From contig LNFR01000066.1 of NCBI GenBank assembly GCA_001567185.1, positions 2,138 through 66,137 of the forward strand: a stretch of DNA of 64,000 nucleotides, given 5' to 3'. Numbering within the stretch: the stretch's first letter is position 1; each line of letters starts with the position of its first letter. The position numbers and the translations under genes are program-made. This DNA comes from Bacteroidetes bacterium OLB12 (GTDB lineage Bacteria; Bacteroidota; Bacteroidia; Cytophagales; Cyclobacteriaceae). Shown here piece after piece: positions 12,298 through 56,453 of the stretch. The notes under the pieces are model-generated. The model was given only the letters and a program-made list of their open reading frames with translations, searched no databases and was not told the DNA's origin.

Positions 12298-14237
12298 TTA
12301 ACCCTTCTTTAAAACTATTTGTTCAGCTTGTTTGGCAACTACCTGATTATAAAATTCCCGTAATACGGCATAATCTGCTTGATTAAAGAGCGTACGGTTT
12401 ATAGCAAAAATACTAGTGAGAATAATGGCTCCATTGCTATACGATATATTATACATATACCGACCTCCGTTTTGTGGTAGTGCAATTACTTTGCTTTGTG
12501 GCATTTCGTCAACCGTATAACCTCGGGTATAGTTAGTTTAAACATGTAAACAGTTTCTGAAGGCACACCATAATCGATAGGAAAGGTACGGGTATCGTGT
12601 TTGAACGGGTTTTGTTTTAGCTGGTTTGTAACAAAAGGATTAATATAAATAATATCGCCCGCTGCGGAGGCATGATCCGGTATGGTAATAGTATGCACCT
12701 GGCGTACCGGTTTATTTAAATCGTGCAAATCGGCATACTCTGATTTAGTTGCCTCCCACCGTTTTGCTTCGAGAAAATTTTTTGTGAATTCTTTTTCGCC
12801 ACTGGCATGGTATTCTGTTCGTGTGCTGCGGGCATTGTATCCTTCATCTGAAATAGTAACCGTACCCGTGATTTCAGCATCACCTGCTATTTTCAGGTCT
12901 GCATTGATGGTGCTTTTTGCCTTCACTTTGGTTTCGATCGGAATCCATCCATGATTTGTCTTGGAGATCACCAGCCCTTGTCCATTCAAACACCGCTCAG
13001 GAATAACGGTGTAGGGTAAATATTTTTCGGTTGCATCAAGCAGCAGCACTTTATCCTGAATACGTGCTGCACAGATTACGTAATTAAACTGCTGCGTCAT
13101 GGGGTAAGCTTGCCGGATAAAGCCATGGCTTCGGGTGCTTAATAAAACCATATCCACGGGAATACCAGCTTTGTCTAACATAGAAGCCAGTAGTACATTG
13201 ATGTCTCCGGAAGTGCCTTTCTTTTTTTCCAAAATTTTCTTCAAATCCCCGGGGTAATAATCCTCCGTGCCATCCCACGCTACATTTTCTTTTACGTAGC
13301 GATGGATTGCTTCAATCTTTTGAAGTGGATCTGTAACACCCGCAGTAACTTTGGCGGTAGCCTCTTTCAAAAATCCAGACTTTTCGATTACACGTCCAAA
13401 GTCTTCGTCCTCGGTTAGTTCTTTGTTAAGTTTTGCCCAGGAGCCCATGATTTCCTGTACGGGCATACCCGGAAAAGTAACATAAGACAATGCGAAATTT
13501 ATTCTTGAAACAAAGTCTTCTTTTGAAGTCATGAATGGTTCTTCCTTAAAAGCGGGAGCATCTTTAACCACCCAATGATGGGCATTCACAGCAGTACCTG
13601 CCATATTCATCGGCTTCACCTCGTTCACGGAAACAGTCAGGTACCCTTGCATATACTTTTCGTAGTGAAAAAACTCAGGTATCATAGCCCAGTATTCACT
13701 CCAAATAGTTGGAATGGTGCGTTGAAATTCCCAGCTAGGAAAATAAGTCCAGAAATCGGAAGAGACATTATAGGCGTACTCAATCACGGATCCTTCTTTT
13801 ACATCGGGCATAGTAAATTTCTGCTGAATGAAGTTACGGTTGAATTTGTCTCTAAACACCGCGTCTTTATTCATTTTTGATTCAACTATTTTTCCATCCG
13901 CCAAATTGTAGGTGGTGGCTTTTAGTGAGGTTACAAGTTCTCCCGTGCTTCCTGATTTACGGAGAAGAATAGCCACATCGCCCCACTTCATACCTTCTTT
14001 GGTTAGAATTTTTATGCGCACATGGCGTGTTGTGGTCATCTTCACACTGGAAGACATAATATTTATATATGCTTCACCGTAATCCGCCAACACCACGGCT
14101 GCTGCTGAGGAATCTTTGGAATAACGGGTCATTTTTAAATCTTCAATCGGCACGTCACCAAATTTGATGGGAGATTTTTGTGCGTATAGGTTGCCCGTAA
14201 AGAATACGAGAAAGATAAGCGGGAACAGAAGTTTCAT
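12298..14237 (-). CDS. DUF3857 + transglutaminase-like (DUF3858) protein, catalytic residues degenerate; one base missing near 12521
   Basis: KKGTSGDINVLL and QFNYVI. Adding one G gives TIPEGYTVDEMPQSK and joins the 12298-12504 ORF. Confidence 0.82.
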
Positions 14238-14337: not shown

Positions 14338-15729
14338 GTGGCAAAATCAAAAACCCTTTTCTTCTGCCAAAGTTGTGGTTATGAATCGGCCAAGTGGTTA
14401 GGCAAATGCCCTTCGTGCAATTCGTGGAATAGTTTTGTGGAGGAGGTCGTTTCAAAAAGTGAAACGGATCGAAACACCTGGCGGCAGGATTCTTCAAAAA
14501 CGAAACTAAACAAACCCAAAACACTCAGCGAAATTACCTCATCGGCCGAGGTGAGAATAACTACCCCCGATACAGAACTGAACCGGGTACTGGGTGGTGG
14601 AATTGTTCCGGGGTCGCTCATCTTAATTGGTGGTGAGCCGGGTATTGGCAAATCAACGTTAATGCTACAGGTAGCGCTTTCGTTGGCGAAAGCAAAAGTT
14701 TTGTATGTATCGGGCGAAGAAAGCGAGCAGCAAATAAAAATGCGGGCCGAGCGCCTGACCGGAAAATCAAAAGCCACACATGAAAATTTCTACATGTTGG
14801 CCGAGACGGAAACGCGCAACATTTTTCAGGCAGTAGAAACCCTGCAACCGGGGTTATTGATTGTAGATTCAATTCAAACATTGCATTCGCATATGCTGGA
14901 TAGCGCTGCGGGTAGTGTGGGGCAGGTGCGCCAGTGTGCGGCAGAATTGATGAAGTTTGCAAAAGAAACAAACACCCCGGTATTTCTGGTGGGGCACATT
15001 ACGAAAGACGGATCGCTGGCTGGCCCAAAAGTGCTGGAGCACATGGTGGATACGGTGCTTCAGTTTGAAGGCGACCGGCATCTTGCCTATCGAATTTTGC
15101 GTACTACGAAAAACAGATTTGGCTCAACTTCTGAAATAGGCATTTATGAAATGTTGGGTAGTGGTTTGCGCGAGGTAAATAATCCTTCTGAAATTTTAAT
15201 TTCACAGAAAGACGGACAATTGAGTGGTGCTACCATTGGTGCTACCATTGAAGGCAACCGGCCGCTGTTAATTGAAATACAATCCCTGGTAAGCCCGGCA
15301 TCGTATGGAACGCCACAACGGACACCAACTGGTTTTGATCAAAAGCGATTGAACATGTTGTTGGCTGTGTTGGAAAAGCGGTGTGGGTTTCGGGTGGGCA
15401 CGCAAGATGTTTTTGTAAACATGGCCGGTGGAATTTATGTAGAAGATCCCGCTATAGATCTTGCGCTTTGTGTATCGATCATTTCATCGATGGAAGAAGT
15501 TCCGGTTAGCGACAAGATCTGTTTTGCGGCCGAAATTGGGTTGGGGGGCGAGTTGCGGCGCAGTTAACCGGATAGACCAGCGCATCAGCGAAGCGGAAAA
15601 ATTAGGGTTTGAAGAAATTTTACATTTCAAAGTATAGCAAAAAAATCGCTCGATTTATCGAAAGCAAAAATCATAGTGAAGTCGTTTGGAAAACTGAGAG
15701 ATGTTTTTGCTGAGTTGATGGGGAGTTGA
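14338..15729 (+). CDS. radA: DNA repair protein RadA/Sms; three +1 indels in the last 170 nt
   Basis: CQSC...CPSC Zn finger, GGEPGIGKST, KNRFG. Removing single bases near 15558, 15620 and 15640 restores GELRAVNRIDQRISEAEKLGFEEIYISKY to TGA 15729. Confidence 0.95.
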
Positions 15730-15733
15730 GTTT

Positions 15734-18700
15734 TTATTTAATGTGAATTTGTTTGGGAGTCTCTTGTCCATAAACTGTCGGGAAATACATCCACTCGGCA
15801 CGGGCCGGATTAAGGGTGTACTTGCCCGTAAAGCGGGGCACCAGCGGGATGGTATAAAAATATTCTCCCGCCTTTAGGGACTTGCAGAAAATGGTAGTTT
15901 GGTGATAATCGTATTGCCTGTGTACTTCTCCGTTTGTACGATTTTGATTTTTATTCTCATAACTGCAACCGGCTGGTATTGGTATGTTTAACAATAAATA
16001 TTCTGTATCTTTTTTTACGATAAGCTTTACAGTAAGACTTACCGGCTTGCCAGCAATTAGCTGTGTTGTGCTATCCTGAAAGTAAGAACTAACCACAAAA
16101 TCTTTGTCTATTCGTTTGGGGCTCGCATTCCAGAATTCTCGGTACGCTGTAAGATAGACCGGGGCAATACCAATTTTTTTGTACTGTAAGGGATCCGTTT
16201 ACCTGCACAATGGTGTCATAAGGGAACTTTGTTATGGTTTTGTTCATCAAAGTCAACTCAGTTTTTGTATAGTTAGCGGTAAGCGAAATTAAATCAGGGA
16301 GCAATGTTTCAATAATGGATGCGGACTCGAATGTGTTTCGCCAGGAATGTGTGCGGGCTTCTAAAAAGAAATTTCTAATTCGCTGTAACTCGGTATTGCT
16401 TGCCTTCTCATTTTTTAAGAGTCGATAGGCAATCAGGGTTGACATTATGGCATTGTCAAAAAGATGAAGCGCATCGGTACCCCAGTAATAATTTCCTTTA
16501 ACTGTTTCATTCCTAAAGTCACTCAGCCAGGTTTTATCATAGGGTAGGTTGGCGTGTTGCATTAATTCTGCTAATCGCAGGCGACTGTAAACAGACAAAT
16601 CGGTTTTTATAAGTGAATCATATAGAGGCTGCACGTTTACCTTTATATTGTGCGTTACTAAAAATTGCATTGGCAAAATCTGCTCCCGCAAGGGTAATTG
16701 AAGTAATCCCGACTGCAAAAAGGTCAATACTCCTTCCTTGTTATAGATGGTTTTAAAGCCTTCCTTTTCGGCTAACTCAAGCCCGTGCACTACATGTAAG
16801 GTAATCCACATCAATCCTTCGCTTTGATTCCACCATCCCCACCCGCCATCTTTGTGTTGATTTTCCGATAGCTTTTTGATGATGCGCTTTACGCGATCCT
16901 CCTGTTTAAATTTTTCCTTTCGGAATTCCGCAATTTTCTTTTCGGCCAGTAGTACCTGCAACTTAGAGGCAAGTTGTTCATTGCAATCGTAAGGGTAGTT
17001 TTTTACAGACTCAATTTCATTCAGTACCACGTCCAGTATATCGGATTGTGCATAGATGCGAAGACTACCCGGTTTGAGAGCAATTGTTATGATCGTATCG
17101 TTTGGTAGCGCCACAAAAAGACCATCAGCATCTTTCACCCCCCTTTTGAATACAGGAATTGTTCGACTCTCACCATCTTCATACTCTTTTTGTTTAATGG
17201 CATATTTCAAATGAATAGAATCCGGGCTGGATGCGAATAGAATTAAGGAATCAACGTGCGAATTGGTTATTTGCAAATCAATGTTGGTTAAGTTACCCTC
17301 AACTTCAATGGTTCGGATAATCGAAAGCGTATCGGTTGTATAGTTAGTAATCTTGCCAATTGCATTGGTGTTATCGCCTTCAACAAGAAAGTGTGGTGTT
17401 GCCACCTGAGCAAGCAAAGGCTTATATGATTGTACTTGCGAGGAAGCCAAACCGCTTCGCTTCTTTGAGGCCATTACAAGGGCTTCAATTTTCCAACCAG
17501 TTATATCATCTGGAAATGTTGCTATAAATTTTGCCTTCCCGTCCTTGTTGGTTGTTAACCGGGGCTGCCAAAAAGCATAATCACGGAAATTCTTACGAAT
17601 ACTATTGCCTGGTAAAACTCCTTCGGGCATGCTTGCCATTGGTGTACCGGGCAGGGGCATAGCCAATAATTGGTTTAGTGTAGTCTTTTGCTTTGACGAA
17701 AGAATGATAACCCCACCGGAGGCCCTTGACCCATATAATGCAACAGCGGCCTTATTATCCAAAACCTCGATTGCGGTAATTGCGTTGGGGTCCATGTTTC
17801 GATAGGTCTGAGCATCAATGATTATTCCATCCAGCACAATTATGGGTGTGTGGCCACTATCAAGCGTTGATACTCCCCGCAGATAAATATGTTGGTTATT
17901 GCCAGGTTTCCACTAACCTGAATGCCAGCAAGGCGGCCCTGTAACAGATTGGATTGAACGGTAACAGAACCTGAAAGACTCATTTTTCTTTGAGCTGCAA
18001 AACCAACTACTACCACCTCACTCAGTTGAGTCACATCTGCCGTAAGTTCAACGTCTACTTCATTTCTGTTATTCGTGTTAATTTCTTCGGTCTTAAGTCC
18101 AATAAATGAAAACACCAATGTGCCCCCTGCTGGTACGGTAAGATAATATTCACCATTTGTATCGGTAACAGTACCGTAAATTGTTCCTTTCACAATTACA
18201 TTAACACCGGGCAGGGGCATTCCATCTTCGGAAGAGTAAACACGACCTCTAACCAGGGTTCCGTGATAGGGGTAGCTTTGATTACGTTGATAGTAGGACG
18301 TGCGCACTTCGTTCATTTCTATTCTGCGCTGCTGTTCTATATAGGTAGTTTTAGCGTCCCATTTTTTTAAAGTATTATAGAGTTTTTCTGAAAATGTATC
18401 TTGTATTTGAAGTGAATCAAAATTGAATTTAATGAGAGTCTGTCCGAATGGTTTAAGAAAAAAACTTCCCGAGCGCAAATACTGCCCATCATTCATTAAC
18501 AAAACCACTTCATAATGGGCAGCCCCTAATTGAGCAAATTCAAGATTGCTTGCCGGATATATGGAATATTGATCAGGGCTATCGAGATTTATTAGAAAGG
18601 TGGCGAGGTGAGTTTTTGGTTTTGAGGAAGGTATGAGAGCAAGTGAAAGGGCTCCGGCTGGCTTGTTTATAAAGTGCTCAATTGGGTATCTGGCAAATCG

Positions 18701-21529
18701 CGGATTTTTAATAGCCGAAAAATCTGACCACCGTTTCTCTATTTCTGATTTGGTCAAAACCCGATCATCAAATGAGGGAGAAAAATTTAAGCGATAGTTT
18801 TGACTTTTTAGAATGGGGGCGGTTATTGAACGTTGCCTGATTAAGCCGGGTAAAAACCGATAGGAATAGAAGGGCTCAAAGTTGAAGGTTAATGCGGTAG
18901 TATCTGCTGAAAAGAATTGTGTTAACTGAGGATGAAGCGGACCAACAATTTCGGGTTGTGGATACCCCCGCCCCGGGGATGGGTTAAATAAAAAGTAGTT
19001 GTTGTTTTGCATAATGTATGCCAGAGCCTGTTTTTCAGATCGTTCAACCGTAATAAAATATTTGCTTAGGGTGTTGGCTTCACGCGCCAGGTCTTCCTTC
19101 GTTAGTTCTGTTTTTAATACGTTAGTCGGTAAATGGTTTAGATCCAACGATATAATCTGCTTATGATTCTTCTTTACCTCAACTGAAAAGGATATGGCAT
19201 AATTGCGTACACGTATTTGTACACGGTGGTTACCCGAATCAATCCTGAATGAATAAGGCTGAATGGTGTTCGCTGACAAATGAAAAACAGGTGTATTATC
19301 TATATAAATTACATGAGGCATAAGCACCAACCCGTTTTCAATTAAAAATGGTGCTATTTGTGTGATCGAGTCTGTGTTGGGTTTACTAAACTCATATTGG
19401 CCATTAGCGGGATATAAAAATTGATAGAAGGAAATACTGTCGAGTCCAAGGGTTTTATGCCAGAGTAACCAATCTAGTTTTGTTACATTCAGGGTTTCAA
19501 ATTCACCCTTACTAAAGGCATTAAAAAACAGCCTGCCATTTTGCTTGCGCGGATACGTGGGAACCTGAGCAACACCTCCTTGCTTAAATTTTTTGGTATA
19601 TGCGAGGGCTGTAACATCGGCATCGTTTACCGGATTGCCGTTCACATCCGAAACATTAACTGTAAATTCAGAAGTTTGACCCGGATATACCAAGGGTGCG
19701 TGAGCAATTGAAATATTAAGTTGACGATCGTTAAAATCTACAGTATAGTTTTCGTTTTTAGAAACACCTGCCCACACGTATTGAATCGAAATAGTAAATA
19801 GTTCTCTTGTTTGTGATTTACCTGTAAAAATCGTTGCTGACTCATCCGTACTGCCCCGATCAATTTGGTTACGATTTTTAAAGATCTGATAATGAACCGG
19901 AATTTTGCGCGGGTTACTGATTGTAATTGAAATAGAATCCTTTGTTCGTGTTGATAATACTTCGAGCTTATCGTATTCAGCCATTTCCAGAAATTCCCAG
20001 GAGGTTGACATGCCGGCTTCATATTCTTTAATGAAAGGGTTGATTTTTTCGTGATAGGGAAGTTGAATTTGTTTGGTAAATATTTCCTCATCATCCCAAC
20101 CTAATGCAGTTAGCTCAGCTGAATCGGTTAAAGCCCCGGCCGTAACCCAAATGCTATCATTTTTTATTTCAAACCGAACTGGAGGTTTATTAAAATTGTA
20201 TTGTAGAATAAGTTCTTTGGTTTGGCGTTCGTTGTCTGCGTTTAAAAAGGCAACAACTGCTTTATAAGTAAGATCAGCCTTCGGAAAAATAGAATCAGGT
20301 AATACAATTTTTGTTTCACCGACTACATCTAACTTGATTTTGTGAAACCAAAGTGTATCAGGAACAAATACCTGGGTTTGATAGATCGTATTCACATGCT
20401 TCGGCATAACAAGCACTTCTGCCTGCACATCGTACAGGGGCATATCATTTGAATCAGTGCCTTTCAGGTAAAGAATACCTCCCTTTTCCTTTCTATTGTT
20501 TTCAGATCGTGCCAGAAACTGATTGGCTTTGAGTTCGTATTGCTCGTACCGAAATGATTTTGACTCAACAATTTTATTTCGATGCTCAAAAGAAATAGTT
20601 GGATTTGTATCTAACGAGAGATTTAAGCTATCAGTAAGCACCACTTCATGAACAAACCCTCCTGTACGATATGGGTTTATATGGCCAAGCTTTACATTTA
20701 CGGGGTTATGTCCATAAGCATACAGGCGCAGATCAAGAGTTTTAGAAATTGGCTTTCCTCGCTTATTGGTGAAAAATGCCTTTATGCGTAACGTATCTCC
20801 TGGTTTAAATATTGGCTTGTTGAATACGATGTAGCCTTTCCAATCTTTTTCGTACTTAGGCTCAATCCATTGCTTTGCCTTGTAATAAATTCCAGGCGCA
20901 GAAACACCATACCCCTTTACAAGATTTTTAACGGTGCGCACAGGATAAACGATAACTGAGGCAATGTGATTAATGGGAAATGTTCCTAATATTCTTTTTC
21001 CGGATCGTACAAAAAGGGTGTTGTTTCTTTGTCTTTCAATTTGGAAGTAAGCGGTATGACCATTGACTGTTACAGACAATAGGCCTCGTTTGTTTGATTT
21101 TTGATCAACATAAGCGTTGTCTTTATTATTAAAGGCTATTGGTTGATTTCGGATTTTAACTTGTGCGTTGTTAATTCTGTTTCCGCTTTGATCGCTGATT
21201 GTAAAAATAAAATCGCGTTGATTAGATAAGAGCGTTAAGTTCGTATTGTTAATAGAAACCAGTTCATAGTGCAACTTGCCCTCAATCGTTTTTACTTCCA
21301 GATAATGCCCAACGGGTAATTTATCCTGAAACCGGGCTGAATCAGACGGATAAAGTGTAAATAACGAATGACAAAATGCCTGTGTAGGTTGACGGTTTTT
21401 GTAAAGAGCCTCAGCTTCGGCATTGGTTACTTTATATACAAACGTGTAATAGCTACTTCGCCTACTTGTGGGTAGGTCTTGTGCGTACGAAATTGTTGTA
21501 GCAACAAGCAATAATAAAAGTAATCTCAT
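15734..21529 (-). CDS. Giant (~1930 aa) alpha-2-macroglobulin-family protein with an internal SusC-type N-terminal domain and TonB plug; split by two indels
   Basis: Signal peptide; MG-type IVFNKPIFKPGDT; RKNFRDYAFWQP..T..DG; thioester YPYDCNEQ; C-terminal LNIPIPAGC...YTLNPARAEWMYFP. Joined by adding one A near 17910 and removing one T at 16174-16180. Confidence 0.85.
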
Positions 21530-52850: not shown

Positions 52851-55445
52851 TGCCATCTAAAATTATAAGATACAGAAGGGGTTGCCCGAAAGAGATAAAA
52901 CTGCGAGATGCTGTACTCGCGGTTTATCAGATCAGACGGTACTTTAAAGTTGTTTGCCGCTTGTGCTTCTTTATTAAAATTAATAAACAAAGGATTTTTC
53001 CGGCCATATAAGTTGAATATGGACAACGCAAGTTCATGTTGATACTTCCGCTCATTGTTGCGATTGAGTTTAAAAATTGCCGTAACATCAAGCCGGTGAT
53101 AGGTAGGCAGGCGTGCATTGTTTTTTTCACCGTACACAGGCACTTCAATTCCGTTGTATTGATAGAAACTAATGGGTGCACTGTAGGGTGCGCCCGATTG
53201 AAGGTTCCAGGAAGAACTTAATTTCCAGCGCTGATGGATATCGTACGACAATGAAAAAATTTACCTGGTGCGGCCGGTCAAATAAAGCGTTGTAACTCCG
53301 GCCTTGGTTAAGTTCTGAAAAGGTGCGCATGGCCCGCGAAAATGTATAGCCCGCTAATCCGCGCAGGCGCCCCAGGTCTTTTTTAACCAGCAACTCAACG
53401 CCATACGATTGTGCCGAGCCAAAGCGCAACTCACCTTCAAAAAAAGGATTCAATAAAGTTTCAGCATGTGTTTCAAAATCAATCTGATGTTGCATGTACT
53501 TGTAAAAAGTTTCGGCACCAAAGGCAATTCCTTTTAAAGGCAGCGAATGGTAATAGCCCAGGCTAAGCTGATCGGCAAGTTGTGGTTGGATATTGATGCT
53601 GCTGGGCAGCCATACTTCCAGCGAGGTGAAGGGGCTAACAGAATTTGAAATGAGATGCACATTTTGCACGTTGCGCGTGTATCCTAACTTAATACTTTGG
53701 TTATCGGTAACCAGGTATTGAAGCACAATACGAGGTTCAGCATTAAAAAAGCGTATGTAGGCCTGGCGGGCCGGAAATACGAGGGTATCGGTTACGGCAT
53801 GTTGCCTGTCAAATTTAAATTCAAAGGCTTCGCCCACATTTGTCCATGAAGTAAATCTTAATCCATAGTTAATTCCCCAGTGTTTATTCCACTGTACCGA
53901 ATGATTTCCGTATAGCACCCATTCAATGGATTGCCGCTTTGATACATTTGAACTCTGAACGTTGTTCGTGAAAAGATTTCCCGGATTGAAATTATAACCA
54001 TTCAGCCCAATCCCAAATGAAATTTCATTTTGAGGTTTAGCAAAGTAGCTGAAATCTGATTTAAGGTTGAGATTTGAGATGTGCGAATTCCACTTTTGGT
54101 TACGCGAAAGATCCGAATGCAAAAAGTAATCGTAGTTGCTGGCAGCGAGGGTTGTGTTAATGAATAGTTTTTCTGAGTGTTGGTTGGTCCACCTGAATGT
54201 GCCGGCAGTATTGCTCCATTGAATAGCATTGTTTGCAGCAAAATAGTTGTCGCCCCCGGTGTAGAAGGAAAAGTATGCGTGGTTGTTAGCGTTAATTCTG
54301 AAATTCACTTTTCCGGTCAGGTCTTGAAAGTTGAACGTACTGATGGCCGGATCAATTTTCTGAAAGAGCCATTTCAGCCGCGAAAATCTTCCGGAGAGTA
54401 AGAAAGAACTTGCATTTTTTTTGATCGGGCCTTCAATGCCCAGCTTGGTAGAGACTAATCCGGTATTTCCCCAAAGTTGAACAACCTGGTCGTTTCCTTT
54501 ACGCGTATGAATATCCAGTACAGAAGAGAGCCTGCCGCCAAACATTGCGGGCATGTTGCCTTTGTAAAGCGTAATGTCTGTTGTTGCATCGGGGATAATC
54601 GTTGAAAAGACGCCCAGCAAATGACTCGGGTTATAAATAGGCGAATCATCTATCAGAATCAGGTTTTGATCGCGATTGCCACCCCGCACATAGTAGAATG
54701 TAGATCCATCCGATTGCAGTTTAATGCCCGGCACGGTTTCAAGCGATTTGATTACATCCTGCTCGCCCAATAAGGCGGGCCGGGTTTCAACTGTTTCTGG
54801 TCGTAACGAAATCTGACTTACACTTGCTTCGGTTAACGATATAAGAGGAAGTGCGGTAACAACAATTTCTTTCAGAAAGGATAACTCTTCCTGTAAAGCA
54901 AAATCTTGCTGATGCGATTCAGACAGATCCAGTGATTGTTCTGTGGCCTTGTATCCCGTATAGGAAATCCGCACAGCATAATGCCCGCCTGGAATGGTTA
55001 ACGAAAAGTAGCCATACGAATTGGCGATAGCCCCGGTTTGCAGCTCAGGAAGATAAACCGTGGCTCCAATAAGAGCCTCTCCGCTTTTTAAATCTTTTAT
55101 ATAACCGCTTAGGGTTATGGTTTTAGGTTGCACGGGGGCAACTTGCGTGCGCGGGGTAATTACAATCTGATTTTCGAGCGGAACAAACTCGAGGCCGGCC
55201 GCTTCGGATAGCGCATTTAGTACAGCGGTTAACGTAGCATTGCTAACGCTAAAAGTAATTTTTCGGTTGGCGGCAATGCTGTTGGGGTTGTATGAAAAAC
55301 GAACCCCGCTTTGCGATTCAATTGCCGAAAGTATTTTGGTGATGGGTTTATGCTGAACCTGAATGGAGATCAGCTTACCTTCCTGCGCATAAATATCACC
55401 TGTCCATAAAATCAGTGCAAGTAAAAACAGCTTAACGGTCTTCAT
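52847..55445 (-). CDS. TonB-dependent receptor with N-terminal STN signalling domain; one extra base at 53254-53259
   Basis: MKTVKLF signal, STN-like domain, LSGYIKD..SGEALIGA, plug YYVRGGNRDQNLILID, barrel, terminal YNFRWQ. The corrected frame gives VNFSLSYDIHQRW. Confidence 0.9.
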
Positions 55446-55458
55446 TCGAAAAGCAGCA

Positions 55459-56453
55459 TCAACAACCCGCGCGGGTAATTTCAATTTTATTTTTTGAATG
55501 GTGTATTCCAGGTTTAGCGTTACCTTCAATACATTTAACACAGCGGTAAGATCTTGCTGGTCGAAACTTACCGTAACCAGGCAGGTATCGGGCACGGGCA
55601 CTGCTATTACAATATTTGATTGGTAAACCTTGTTAAGGGTTTCAACCACAGTTTGCAGGTTGGCTTCGGTAAAGGTAAGTCTGCGGGTTTTCCAGGCATT
55701 AAAGTTTACATCGGTGTTAATTTCGTTTTGCACGGTTTGTTGCTGCGGGTTATAAATTCCCCGATCGCCAGCCTGGAGCGTGACATGCGCTGTTTTATCC
55801 GGAGTACTTAACTTTACAGTGCCGGTAGCTACCACTACTTCTAATACCTCGCTTGCTTTGTACCCACGCACGTTAAACGAAGTGCCCAGCACTTCTACGG
55901 AGGCATCCTTTACAGAAATAGTAAAAGGCTTATTGGGATTATGAGCAACTTCAAAAAATGCTTCACCCTCTAACGAGATGTGGCGATCTGAATTGTTGAA
56001 AGAGGAACTATAGGTGAGTCTGGAGTTTTGATTTAGTGTAACAAGACTTCCATCCGGTAAAGTTACCTCCTGCGCCACCAGTCCGCTTTCTATAATAGAA
56101 AGCCCGGCATTGCTGAAATAGTTGTATAGAACAACTGAAGCAGCCACCACCATTACCGCAGCTGCTACGCGAAGCCAGGTGGTAGAGAATAATGTGCGTA
56201 CGTTGTTCGTTTTGGGTTTGTCAATTGACTTCAAAAATCGGTTCCACTCCGCGTCCAGATTAAGATCCGGAACTTGTTTGGTACGATAATACTGACTGGC
56301 GATTGAGAACGACTTTTGCAGTTTCTGATAGTGTTGGTTGTTTTCGGCCGTGGCGGCAATCCAGGTCCTGAGCTGTTGTTCTTCCTCAGCCGTGGTTTCG
56401 CCCGTCAGCGATCGCGTAATCAGGTTGTCAATATCGTTTTCTTCGTAGTTCAC
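55459..56453 (-). CDS. FecR-family anti-sigma factor (artefactually fused to the receptor in the ORF track)
   Basis: VTLPDGSLVTLNQNS, LEGEAFFEV, VLGTSFNV. Adding one base to the T6 run at 55490-55495 gives KNKIEITRAGC* with the stop at 55459-55461. Confidence 0.88.

Follow-up and report, generated by a model that had tools for sequence, protein, structure and literature searches.

A Bacteroidota family of alpha-2-macroglobulins that carries the front end of a SusC-type transporter

The 64,000-nucleotide stretch considered here (the window; positions 2,138 to 66,137 of contig LNFR01000066.1 from Bacteroidetes bacterium OLB12, assembly GCA_001567185.1) carries on its minus strand, at 15734-21529, a gene of the alpha-2-macroglobulin (A2M) type whose product combines a macroglobulin (MG) scaffold and a thioester domain with the front end of a SusC-type outer-membrane transporter. 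This front end, which consists of the SusC N-terminal extension (NTE), a TonB box and a plug, lies inside the protein between the N-terminal MG array and the A2M domain. A single A2M-family thioester protein containing such a module had been proposed from the letters of the DNA alone (the original prediction), and the proposal is borne out by Pfam and NCBIfam domain matches and by intact relatives of the gene. Judging from homology searches, the architecture is a widespread Bacteroidota design, found in Cytophagales and in a second subfamily of about 2200 aa. It is undescribed in the searchable literature, as full-text searches found no paper that combines a macroglobulin with a plug, a TonB box or SusC.

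A macroglobulin gene with an internal SusC module

The gene starts with an ATG at 21529 and ends with a stop codon at 15734-15736. In the window it appears as three abutting open reading frames (ORFs) at 17840-21529, 16089-17837 and 15734-16096 (1229, 582 and 120 codons), which are pieces of one A2M gene interrupted by two homopolymer differences of one base each. At each ORF boundary the frame changes and the gene does not end. Frameshift 1 is located inside the plug, where the window has a CC run at 17905-17906 and CCC is found at three related loci, which represent two distinct samples; downstream of this run the +2 frame carries on with the canonical plug sequence PGNNQHIYLRGVSTLDSGHTPIIVLDG. 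Frameshift 2 is an A7 run at 16174-16180 that is A6 in the intact relatives, and beyond it the original frame carries on with IGIAPVYLTAYREFWN.

Relatives with an intact gene were recovered by a homology search with the read-through sequence. In these the gene has 1931 codons and its product is a 1931-aa protein (P0004), the numbering of which is used for all residues below. P0004 differs from the read-through translation only in the junction loop (SGNPG in place of a guessed SGKPG) and in a single Q-to-H change. Three assemblies encode it, L001 (GCA_016861405.1), L002 (the Logan assembly of DRR258782) and L003 (SRR10090765); L002 is the same as L001 over the locus, so the three assemblies represent two distinct relatives (L001/L002 and L003), to which the window DNA is 99.3-99.4% identical. 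The plug and A2M halves are one gene and not two, being a single ORF in the two near-identical relatives and in hundreds of distant ones. The claim that everything forms one protein thus holds for the intact relatives, but not for the window as it stands, where two frameshifts must be read through. The plug loop that was originally read as GKPG is SGNPGNN when the CCC of the relatives is used.

Pfam and NCBIfam models match the pieces in the order weak MG2, CarbopepD_reg_2 (E 3e-18), the front of TIGR04056 (SusC/RagA; model positions 3-100 and then 157-205), the end of Plug, A2M (E 1.5e-15) and bMG10 (E 2e-11). In order along the protein, with helices and disorder taken from AlphaFold2 (AF2) models, the features are as follows.

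21479-21529, minus strand: signal peptide, MRLLLLLLVATTISYA followed by Q, residues 1-16, ending in SYA before Q; signal-peptidase-I type with Gln at +1 and no lipobox Cys
18254-21478, minus strand: N-terminal MG domain array, residues 18-1092, beta-sandwiches; weak Pfam MG2 match at residues 231-296
18047-18253, minus strand: SusC-type NTE (CarbopepD_reg_2), residues 1093-1161; Pfam E 1.9e-18; folded in the AF2 model
18002-18025, minus strand: TonB box LSEVVVVG, residues 1169-1176
17694-18001, minus strand: TonB-receptor plug, residues about 1177-1290; Pfam Plug 38.8 bits, cut-off 23.9
17598-17693, minus strand: variable linker from plug to A2M domain, residues 1281-1312, about 32 aa, predicted disordered
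17562-17597, minus strand: RKNFRDYAFWQP, the opening of the A2M domain
17322-17576, minus strand: A2M domain (PF00207), residues 1319-1403, by Pfam
16272-17039, minus strand: helical thioester domain (TED), AF2 helices 1498-1753; matched by ECAM fragment 4ziu (TMt 0.67)
16974-16985, minus strand: thioester motif CNEQ, residues 1516-1519, within CUB/TED
15779-16063, minus strand: C-terminal bMG10, residues 1818-1917; Pfam E 2e-11; contains AEWMYFP
15785-15796, minus strand: EWMY within bMG10, which fits the EXMY motif

The protein is a genuine member of the A2M/ECAM family, with an MG scaffold, a CUB/TED region bearing a CNEQ thioester motif, and a C-terminal MG10 lid. Residues 1310-1931 align with residues 914-1630 of a canonical Bacteroidota A2M of 1632 aa (hhalign, E 1.4e-38), and CNEQ falls opposite CVEQ. 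The CNEQ motif is encoded exactly where the original prediction had placed it, and it is invariant in 67 of the 67 aligned relatives, down to 33% identity. The Met and Tyr of EXMY are likewise invariant in all 67; in ECAM and SaA2M this motif covers the thioester and, after cleavage, binds the bait (PMC4498604). Both halves of the protein are predicted to adopt the native A2M fold. For an AF2 model of residues 735-1931 (predicted local distance difference test score, pLDDT, 81; predicted template-modelling score, pTM, 0.54), the best Foldseek matches in the PDB are native ECAM 5a42 (E 1.5e-28), A2ML1, TEP1, SaA2M 4u48 and the ECAM fragment 4ziu, and for a model of residues 1-1100 (pLDDT 83, more exactly 82.9; pTM 0.60) they are SaA2M 4u48 (E 6.6e-17) and ECAM 5a42, with E values of about 1e-16.

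The module comprises the whole front end of a SusC. The NTE, TonB-box and plug strings singled out at the outset are all present, at 17694-18253. Residues 1092-1283 align with residues 30-233 of the SusC structure 5t3r_D (E 1.8e-24), and the sequence matches of the NTE in the PDB, 6ytc and 9hfj, are both isolated NTE structures. In an alignment with the SusCs of the same genome, the module breaks off precisely where those proteins pass from the plug into the first barrel strand, and its first plug segment is shorter by about 13 residues in this subfamily. As had been anticipated there is no beta-barrel: TIGR04056 matches only at model positions 3-205, with 102 bits against a cut-off of 368, and the A2M domain follows the plug. 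It does not follow immediately, as had been stated, since the 32-residue linker intervenes. The module is 36-41% identical to the SusCs of the genome by BLASTP (41-49% in a tblastn-type search), which is about as close as it is to distant members of its own family, and the plug-core motifs IxIRG, PLxVxDG and ALYGSRAxxGVI are conserved as in real plugs.

Domain order places the module at the bait position, as had been proposed. In a sister subfamily of 2219 aa (L014), Pfam finds MG2, A2M_BRD (988-1124), CarbopepD_reg_2 (1216-1296), Plug (1319-1404), A2M (1432-1519) and bMG10, and in two canonical A2Ms of another Bacteroidota genome the gap between A2M_BRD and A2M is only about 100 residues. This order, together with the short gap in the canonical proteins, indicates that the module sits in the segment that bears the bait. 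In the 1931-aa subfamily the MG array ends in two helices (1045-1083) directly ahead of the module.

Within this segment sequence constraint and predicted order are unevenly distributed. Across the family, column identity lies at 0.5-0.7 for the NTE, TonB box and plug, compared with 0.3-0.5 for the MG domains upstream and 0.41-0.48 for the linker, the sequence of which varies at a near-constant length (32-36 residues in the 34 sequences measurable by a motif pair). The NTE is modelled with confidence and the second half of the plug with moderate confidence; pLDDT falls below 50 at residues 1166-1226, which cover the TonB box and about 50 residues of the first plug half, and at 1296-1321 in the linker. 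Force spectroscopy of the BtuB and FhuA plugs has revealed a mechanically weak N-terminal and a strong C-terminal subdomain (PMC5413942), and the disordered and modelled halves of the plug correspond to these weak and strong subdomains.

The homology search with the read-through sequence returned at least 1940 matches. The best 120 of these have CarbopepD_reg and A2M, nearly all have bMG10 and most have a Plug match as well; they are mostly about 1930 aa long and come from Cyclobacteriaceae, Flammeovirgaceae, Rhodocytophaga, Flammeovirga and Mangrovivirga. A 336-aa query over the NTE, plug and A2M domain, searched against 1.84 billion cluster representatives, matched at least 621 clusters (50% identity) at E <= 1e-30, and nearly all of the best 150 span the junction in one stretch. 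A scan of genome contigs with a single-protein query, which reaches close kin only, gave 3 loci. A metagenome-assembled genome (MAG) labelled uncultured Bacteroidaceae (L010, CAZLHV010000130.1) encodes a relative that aligns along the whole protein (residues 1-1931) at 30% identity; the family is thus not confined to Cytophagales. Distribution is patchy: about 8 of 200 sampled Bacteroidota genomes have long forms (1900-2200 aa), and a genome of the same genus as well as several of the same family lack the protein.

The two frameshifts in the window

Comparison with the relatives makes it probable that the two frameshifts are homopolymer assembly errors, so that the organism probably has an intact A2M gene. 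Over 21.8 kb, 10 single-base indels separate the window from the relatives, and almost every one alters the length of a short homopolymer run. Six of the 10 are in coding sequence (two in the A2M gene, three at the 3' end of radA and one in a transglutaminase-like gene), and each truncates its ORF, which leaves three genes broken, including radA. L001 and L003, by comparison, differ from each other by 36 single-nucleotide polymorphisms (SNPs) and 0 indels over 17.7 kb. There are fewer SNPs per kb in the A2M gene than in its flanks, and the source assembly is a draft of 118 contigs that is 92% complete. It is on these grounds, together with the frame-split transporter genes and the deletions in L008 described below, that the frameshifts are read as errors.

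The radA-like gene (14338-15729, plus strand) encodes 462 aa in the relatives and ends early in the window, at 15567; it has three extra bases in short runs at 15558, 15621 and 15645, all within 90 nt of its 3' end. These indels are of the same kind as the differences in the A2M gene and support an assembly error. The transglutaminase-like/DUF3857 gene (12486-14237, minus strand) encodes 583 aa versus 646 aa in the relatives, the truncation being due to a one-base deletion in an AA run at 12524. Elsewhere in the genome, at least two SusC/TonB-dependent transporter genes (C34:7152-9049 and C38:10-2063) have collinear tblastn matches in two frames, and these frame splits are likely further assembly frameshift errors. 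In a MAG of the same lineage (L008, CP058703.1, 6001-11797), which is 96% identical, the A2M gene has four other homopolymer deletions. The plug loop of this MAG has NN plus a 3-base insertion exactly where the window has frameshift 1; the SGNPGNN loop is variable in length across the family.

Alternatively, both frameshifts could be real mutations and the gene a pseudogene in this strain, in which case the protein would not be made here and the family elsewhere would be unaffected. Both are present in the window sequence as given, which counts against an intact gene; the family is patchy enough to show that loss occurs, and an indel-to-SNP ratio of about 1:12 is not abnormal in itself. A pseudogene nevertheless seems unlikely. 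Against it stand the truncation of radA and of the transglutaminase-like gene, the indel-free comparison of L001 with L003, the frame-split transporter genes in the draft and the different set of homopolymer deletions in L008, and the low density of SNPs in the gene gives no sign of decay. Phase variation at the A7 tract was considered and set aside: no evidence for it was found, the CC/CCC run is too short for slippage, and like indels occur in unrelated genes.

Proposed function and competing explanations

Family N-termini conform to the Q-rule of Bacteroidota, cleavage by signal peptidase I ahead of Gln. An [AGS]-Q signal motif is present in 85 of 102 family members, and nearly all of the listed exceptions also have a Gln site. 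Lipobox-like patterns match in only two of the 102 and not in the window protein, and the C-terminus is a bMG10 domain, not a type IX secretion domain. Given these signals, a periplasmic, non-lipidated protein is the simplest reading.

From the architecture, its conservation, the predicted native A2M fold and the absence of a barrel, we infer that the protein is a periplasmic thioester trap organised like ECAM, in which the cassette docks to TonB and supplies or extends the bait; this has about an even chance of being correct. Tethering to TonB, or triggering by it, was one of two functions suggested in the original prediction, the other being a plug that acts as decoy bait. The exported, non-lipidated trap would sit in the periplasm, where the cassette of NTE and TonB box would dock it to TonB and so stand in for the lipid anchor that ECAM has in E. 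coli. The disordered TonB box and the mechanically weak half of the plug, plus the linker, would form a bait accessible to proteases. Cleavage of this bait would free the TED, and the thioester would then bind the attacking protease covalently.

A link to TonB is somewhat favoured over a merely floppy bait: conservation is higher in the module than in the MG domains beside it, the TonB box has been retained, and the cassette also occurs on a TonB_C protein. The genome has six TonB_C ORFs. The TonB_C protein that bears the cassette (C80:56273-57643, plus strand) is 451 aa long and has an anti-sigma-like N-terminus, a single membrane helix, an NTE (CarbopepD_reg_2) that is 50% identical to that of the A2M gene, the TonB-box-like sequence DVSQLSEVVVTGY, and TonB_C. 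The cassette of NTE and TonB box is thus found in three settings within one genome, as would suit a module that communicates with the TonB system. That a TonB-type protein should have a TonB box of its own is odd and may bear on the role of the NTE. In Flammeovirga yaeyamensis (CP076132.1), a TonB_C gene (L011:13028-14014, plus strand) lies 67 nt downstream of a family member, on the same strand.

Several observations weigh against the proposed trap. Binding to TonB is suggested by motif conservation and domain co-occurrence, and a TonB-system gene is a neighbour in only 1 of about 12 loci. Conservation of the plug core exceeds what a tether or a bait would need, and it may be that the plug folds against a partner. 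With pTM values of only 0.54 and 0.60, the inter-domain geometry of the models is uncertain. As to the bait position, Pfam A2M_BRD was not detected in the 1931-aa subfamily, and a local hhalign comparison of residues 600-1092 with canonical A2Ms was not significant; when the whole family was aligned to a canonical A2M, only the C-terminal 620 residues aligned. Placement of the module at the bait position in this subfamily therefore rests on domain order, the sister subfamily, the preceding helices and matches at the level of the fold.

The gene is flanked by a PALP enzyme and radA, and in close kin the local order is radical SAM, PALP, A2M, radA and transglutaminase. That pbpC is not adjacent had been noted originally, and this is correct: no pbpC adjoins the gene, and the only PbpC-type (BiPBP_C) ORF of the genome is on another contig (C63). 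Among about 12 loci of diverse members there is no conserved partner gene and no barrel gene next to the A2M gene, and no SusD-like lipoprotein was found there or in the window flanks. The window does contain a complete TonB-dependent receptor with NTE and plug (53169-56453, minus strand; a 1094-aa ORF with TIGR04056 positions 1-207 at its N-terminus), which is 32 kb from the A2M gene and neither adjacent nor obviously linked to it.

The foremost alternative to docking, though an improbable one, is that the SusC front end is a decoy: it would mimic a transporter and lure proteases or protease toxins that hit the periplasmic face of SusC, the trap would bind them covalently, and TonB would have no role. 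The module does keep SusC-level sequence, as judged from its identity to the SusCs of the genome, and its TonB box and first plug half are predicted to be exposed and disordered. In a tree of modules the SusCs of the genome nest within those of the A2M family, as expected if a decoy must resemble its model, but the SusC-type sequences in the tree number only eight and come from this single genome, and its deep branches are weakly supported. No protease is known to target SusC front ends from the periplasm. The bait is the most variable region of known A2Ms, and in this respect the module, which is among the most conserved parts of the protein, is unlike known baits. Moreover, the separate variable linker already fits a classical bait; being predicted disordered and of constant length, it could serve as one alone. 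No conclusion on an exchange of modules with real SusCs was drawn from the same tree, for the same shortage of SusC-type sequences and of deep support.

A trigger driven by force is less probable still. Here TonB, powered by the proton-motive force, would grip the internal TonB box and unravel the weak half of the plug at the bait site, thereby freeing the TED without cleavage. If this were true, the protein would be an energy-coupled macroglobulin, with its thioester exposed for covalent capture without an arming protease.

The least probable explanation, and a very doubtful one, is a split transporter, in which a SusC-type barrel that lacks a plug would take up the plug of this protein in trans at the outer membrane, so that the macroglobulin is anchored beneath the barrel or the barrel is gated; the preserved plug-core motifs would suit this, but the six full SusC genes of the genome have plugs of their own (TIGR04056 from position 1-2 to 980-981), no barrel-only SusC-type match lies inside any contig of the 92%-complete genome (one partial match, model positions 764-981, is at a contig end and uninformative), the NTE-only ORFs examined are DUF5686 proteins or a divergent receptor, no barrel gene adjoins the A2M gene in the loci inspected, and the family lacks part of the first plug segment.

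On the preferred reading, a periplasmic trap that docks to TonB, a conserved module of the TonB system has taken the place of the anchor and reshaped the bait site in a large Bacteroidota family. If the module does bind TonB, the family would be the first soluble client of TonB, and a thioester trap of the innate-immunity type would be linked to the energy system of the outer membrane. The family would also offer a way into the role of the SusC NTE, a domain that Bt1763 cannot do without and to which no function has been assigned (PMC7782687). In databases its members are mis-named as 'SusC/RagA outer membrane receptor' or 'carboxypeptidase-like regulatory domain protein'; source names among the 120 best matches are 'carboxypeptidase-like regulatory domain-containing protein', 'TonB-dependent SusC/RagA...' and 'alpha-2-macroglobulin'.

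Comparison with known systems

The well-understood bacterial macroglobulins are two enterobacterial proteins, both lipid-anchored and with a short bait. ECAM/YfhM and SaA2M (PDB 5a42, 4u48, 4ziu, 4rtd) share with the family the MG array, the A2M domain, the CxEQ motif of CUB/TED and the EXMY lid of MG10, and they are the best fold matches for both halves; a periplasmic location is probably shared as well. In contrast to these proteins, the family protein has a Q-rule signal-peptidase-I site in place of a lipoprotein anchor, has no adjacent pbpC, and has at the bait position an NTE, a TonB box and a plug that add about 200 residues, while its N-terminal 1090 residues are not alignable with theirs by sequence.

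SusC/RagA transporters (TIGR04056; Bt1763, BT2264 and RagA) share the NTE, the TonB box (xLSEVVVVGYG) and the plug with all of its core motifs. In Bt1763 the NTE (residues 3-76) and the TonB box (81-VDEVVV-86) are both required for function (PMC7782687). The family protein differs in that it has neither the 22-stranded barrel (model positions 206-981) nor a SusD partner, in that its module lies inside a soluble protein and not at the N-terminus, and in the absence of about 13 residues from the first plug segment. The C80 protein of the same genome, an inner-membrane protein, likewise has the cassette outside any transporter, but it is membrane-anchored and the cassette is followed by TonB_C, not by a plug and a macroglobulin.

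The eukaryotic thioester proteins (human A2M, A2ML1, CD109, TEP1 and C3/C5) share the native-conformation fold predicted for the family (Foldseek E 1e-28 to 1e-24), at about 10% identity. In these proteins, as would be the case in the proposed trap, activation is triggered at a disordered segment, the bait or anaphylatoxin site, ahead of the MG domain that Pfam calls A2M. They have short variable baits or an ANA domain at this position, and none has a transporter module, whereas the Bacteroidota family described here carries the conserved front end of a SusC.

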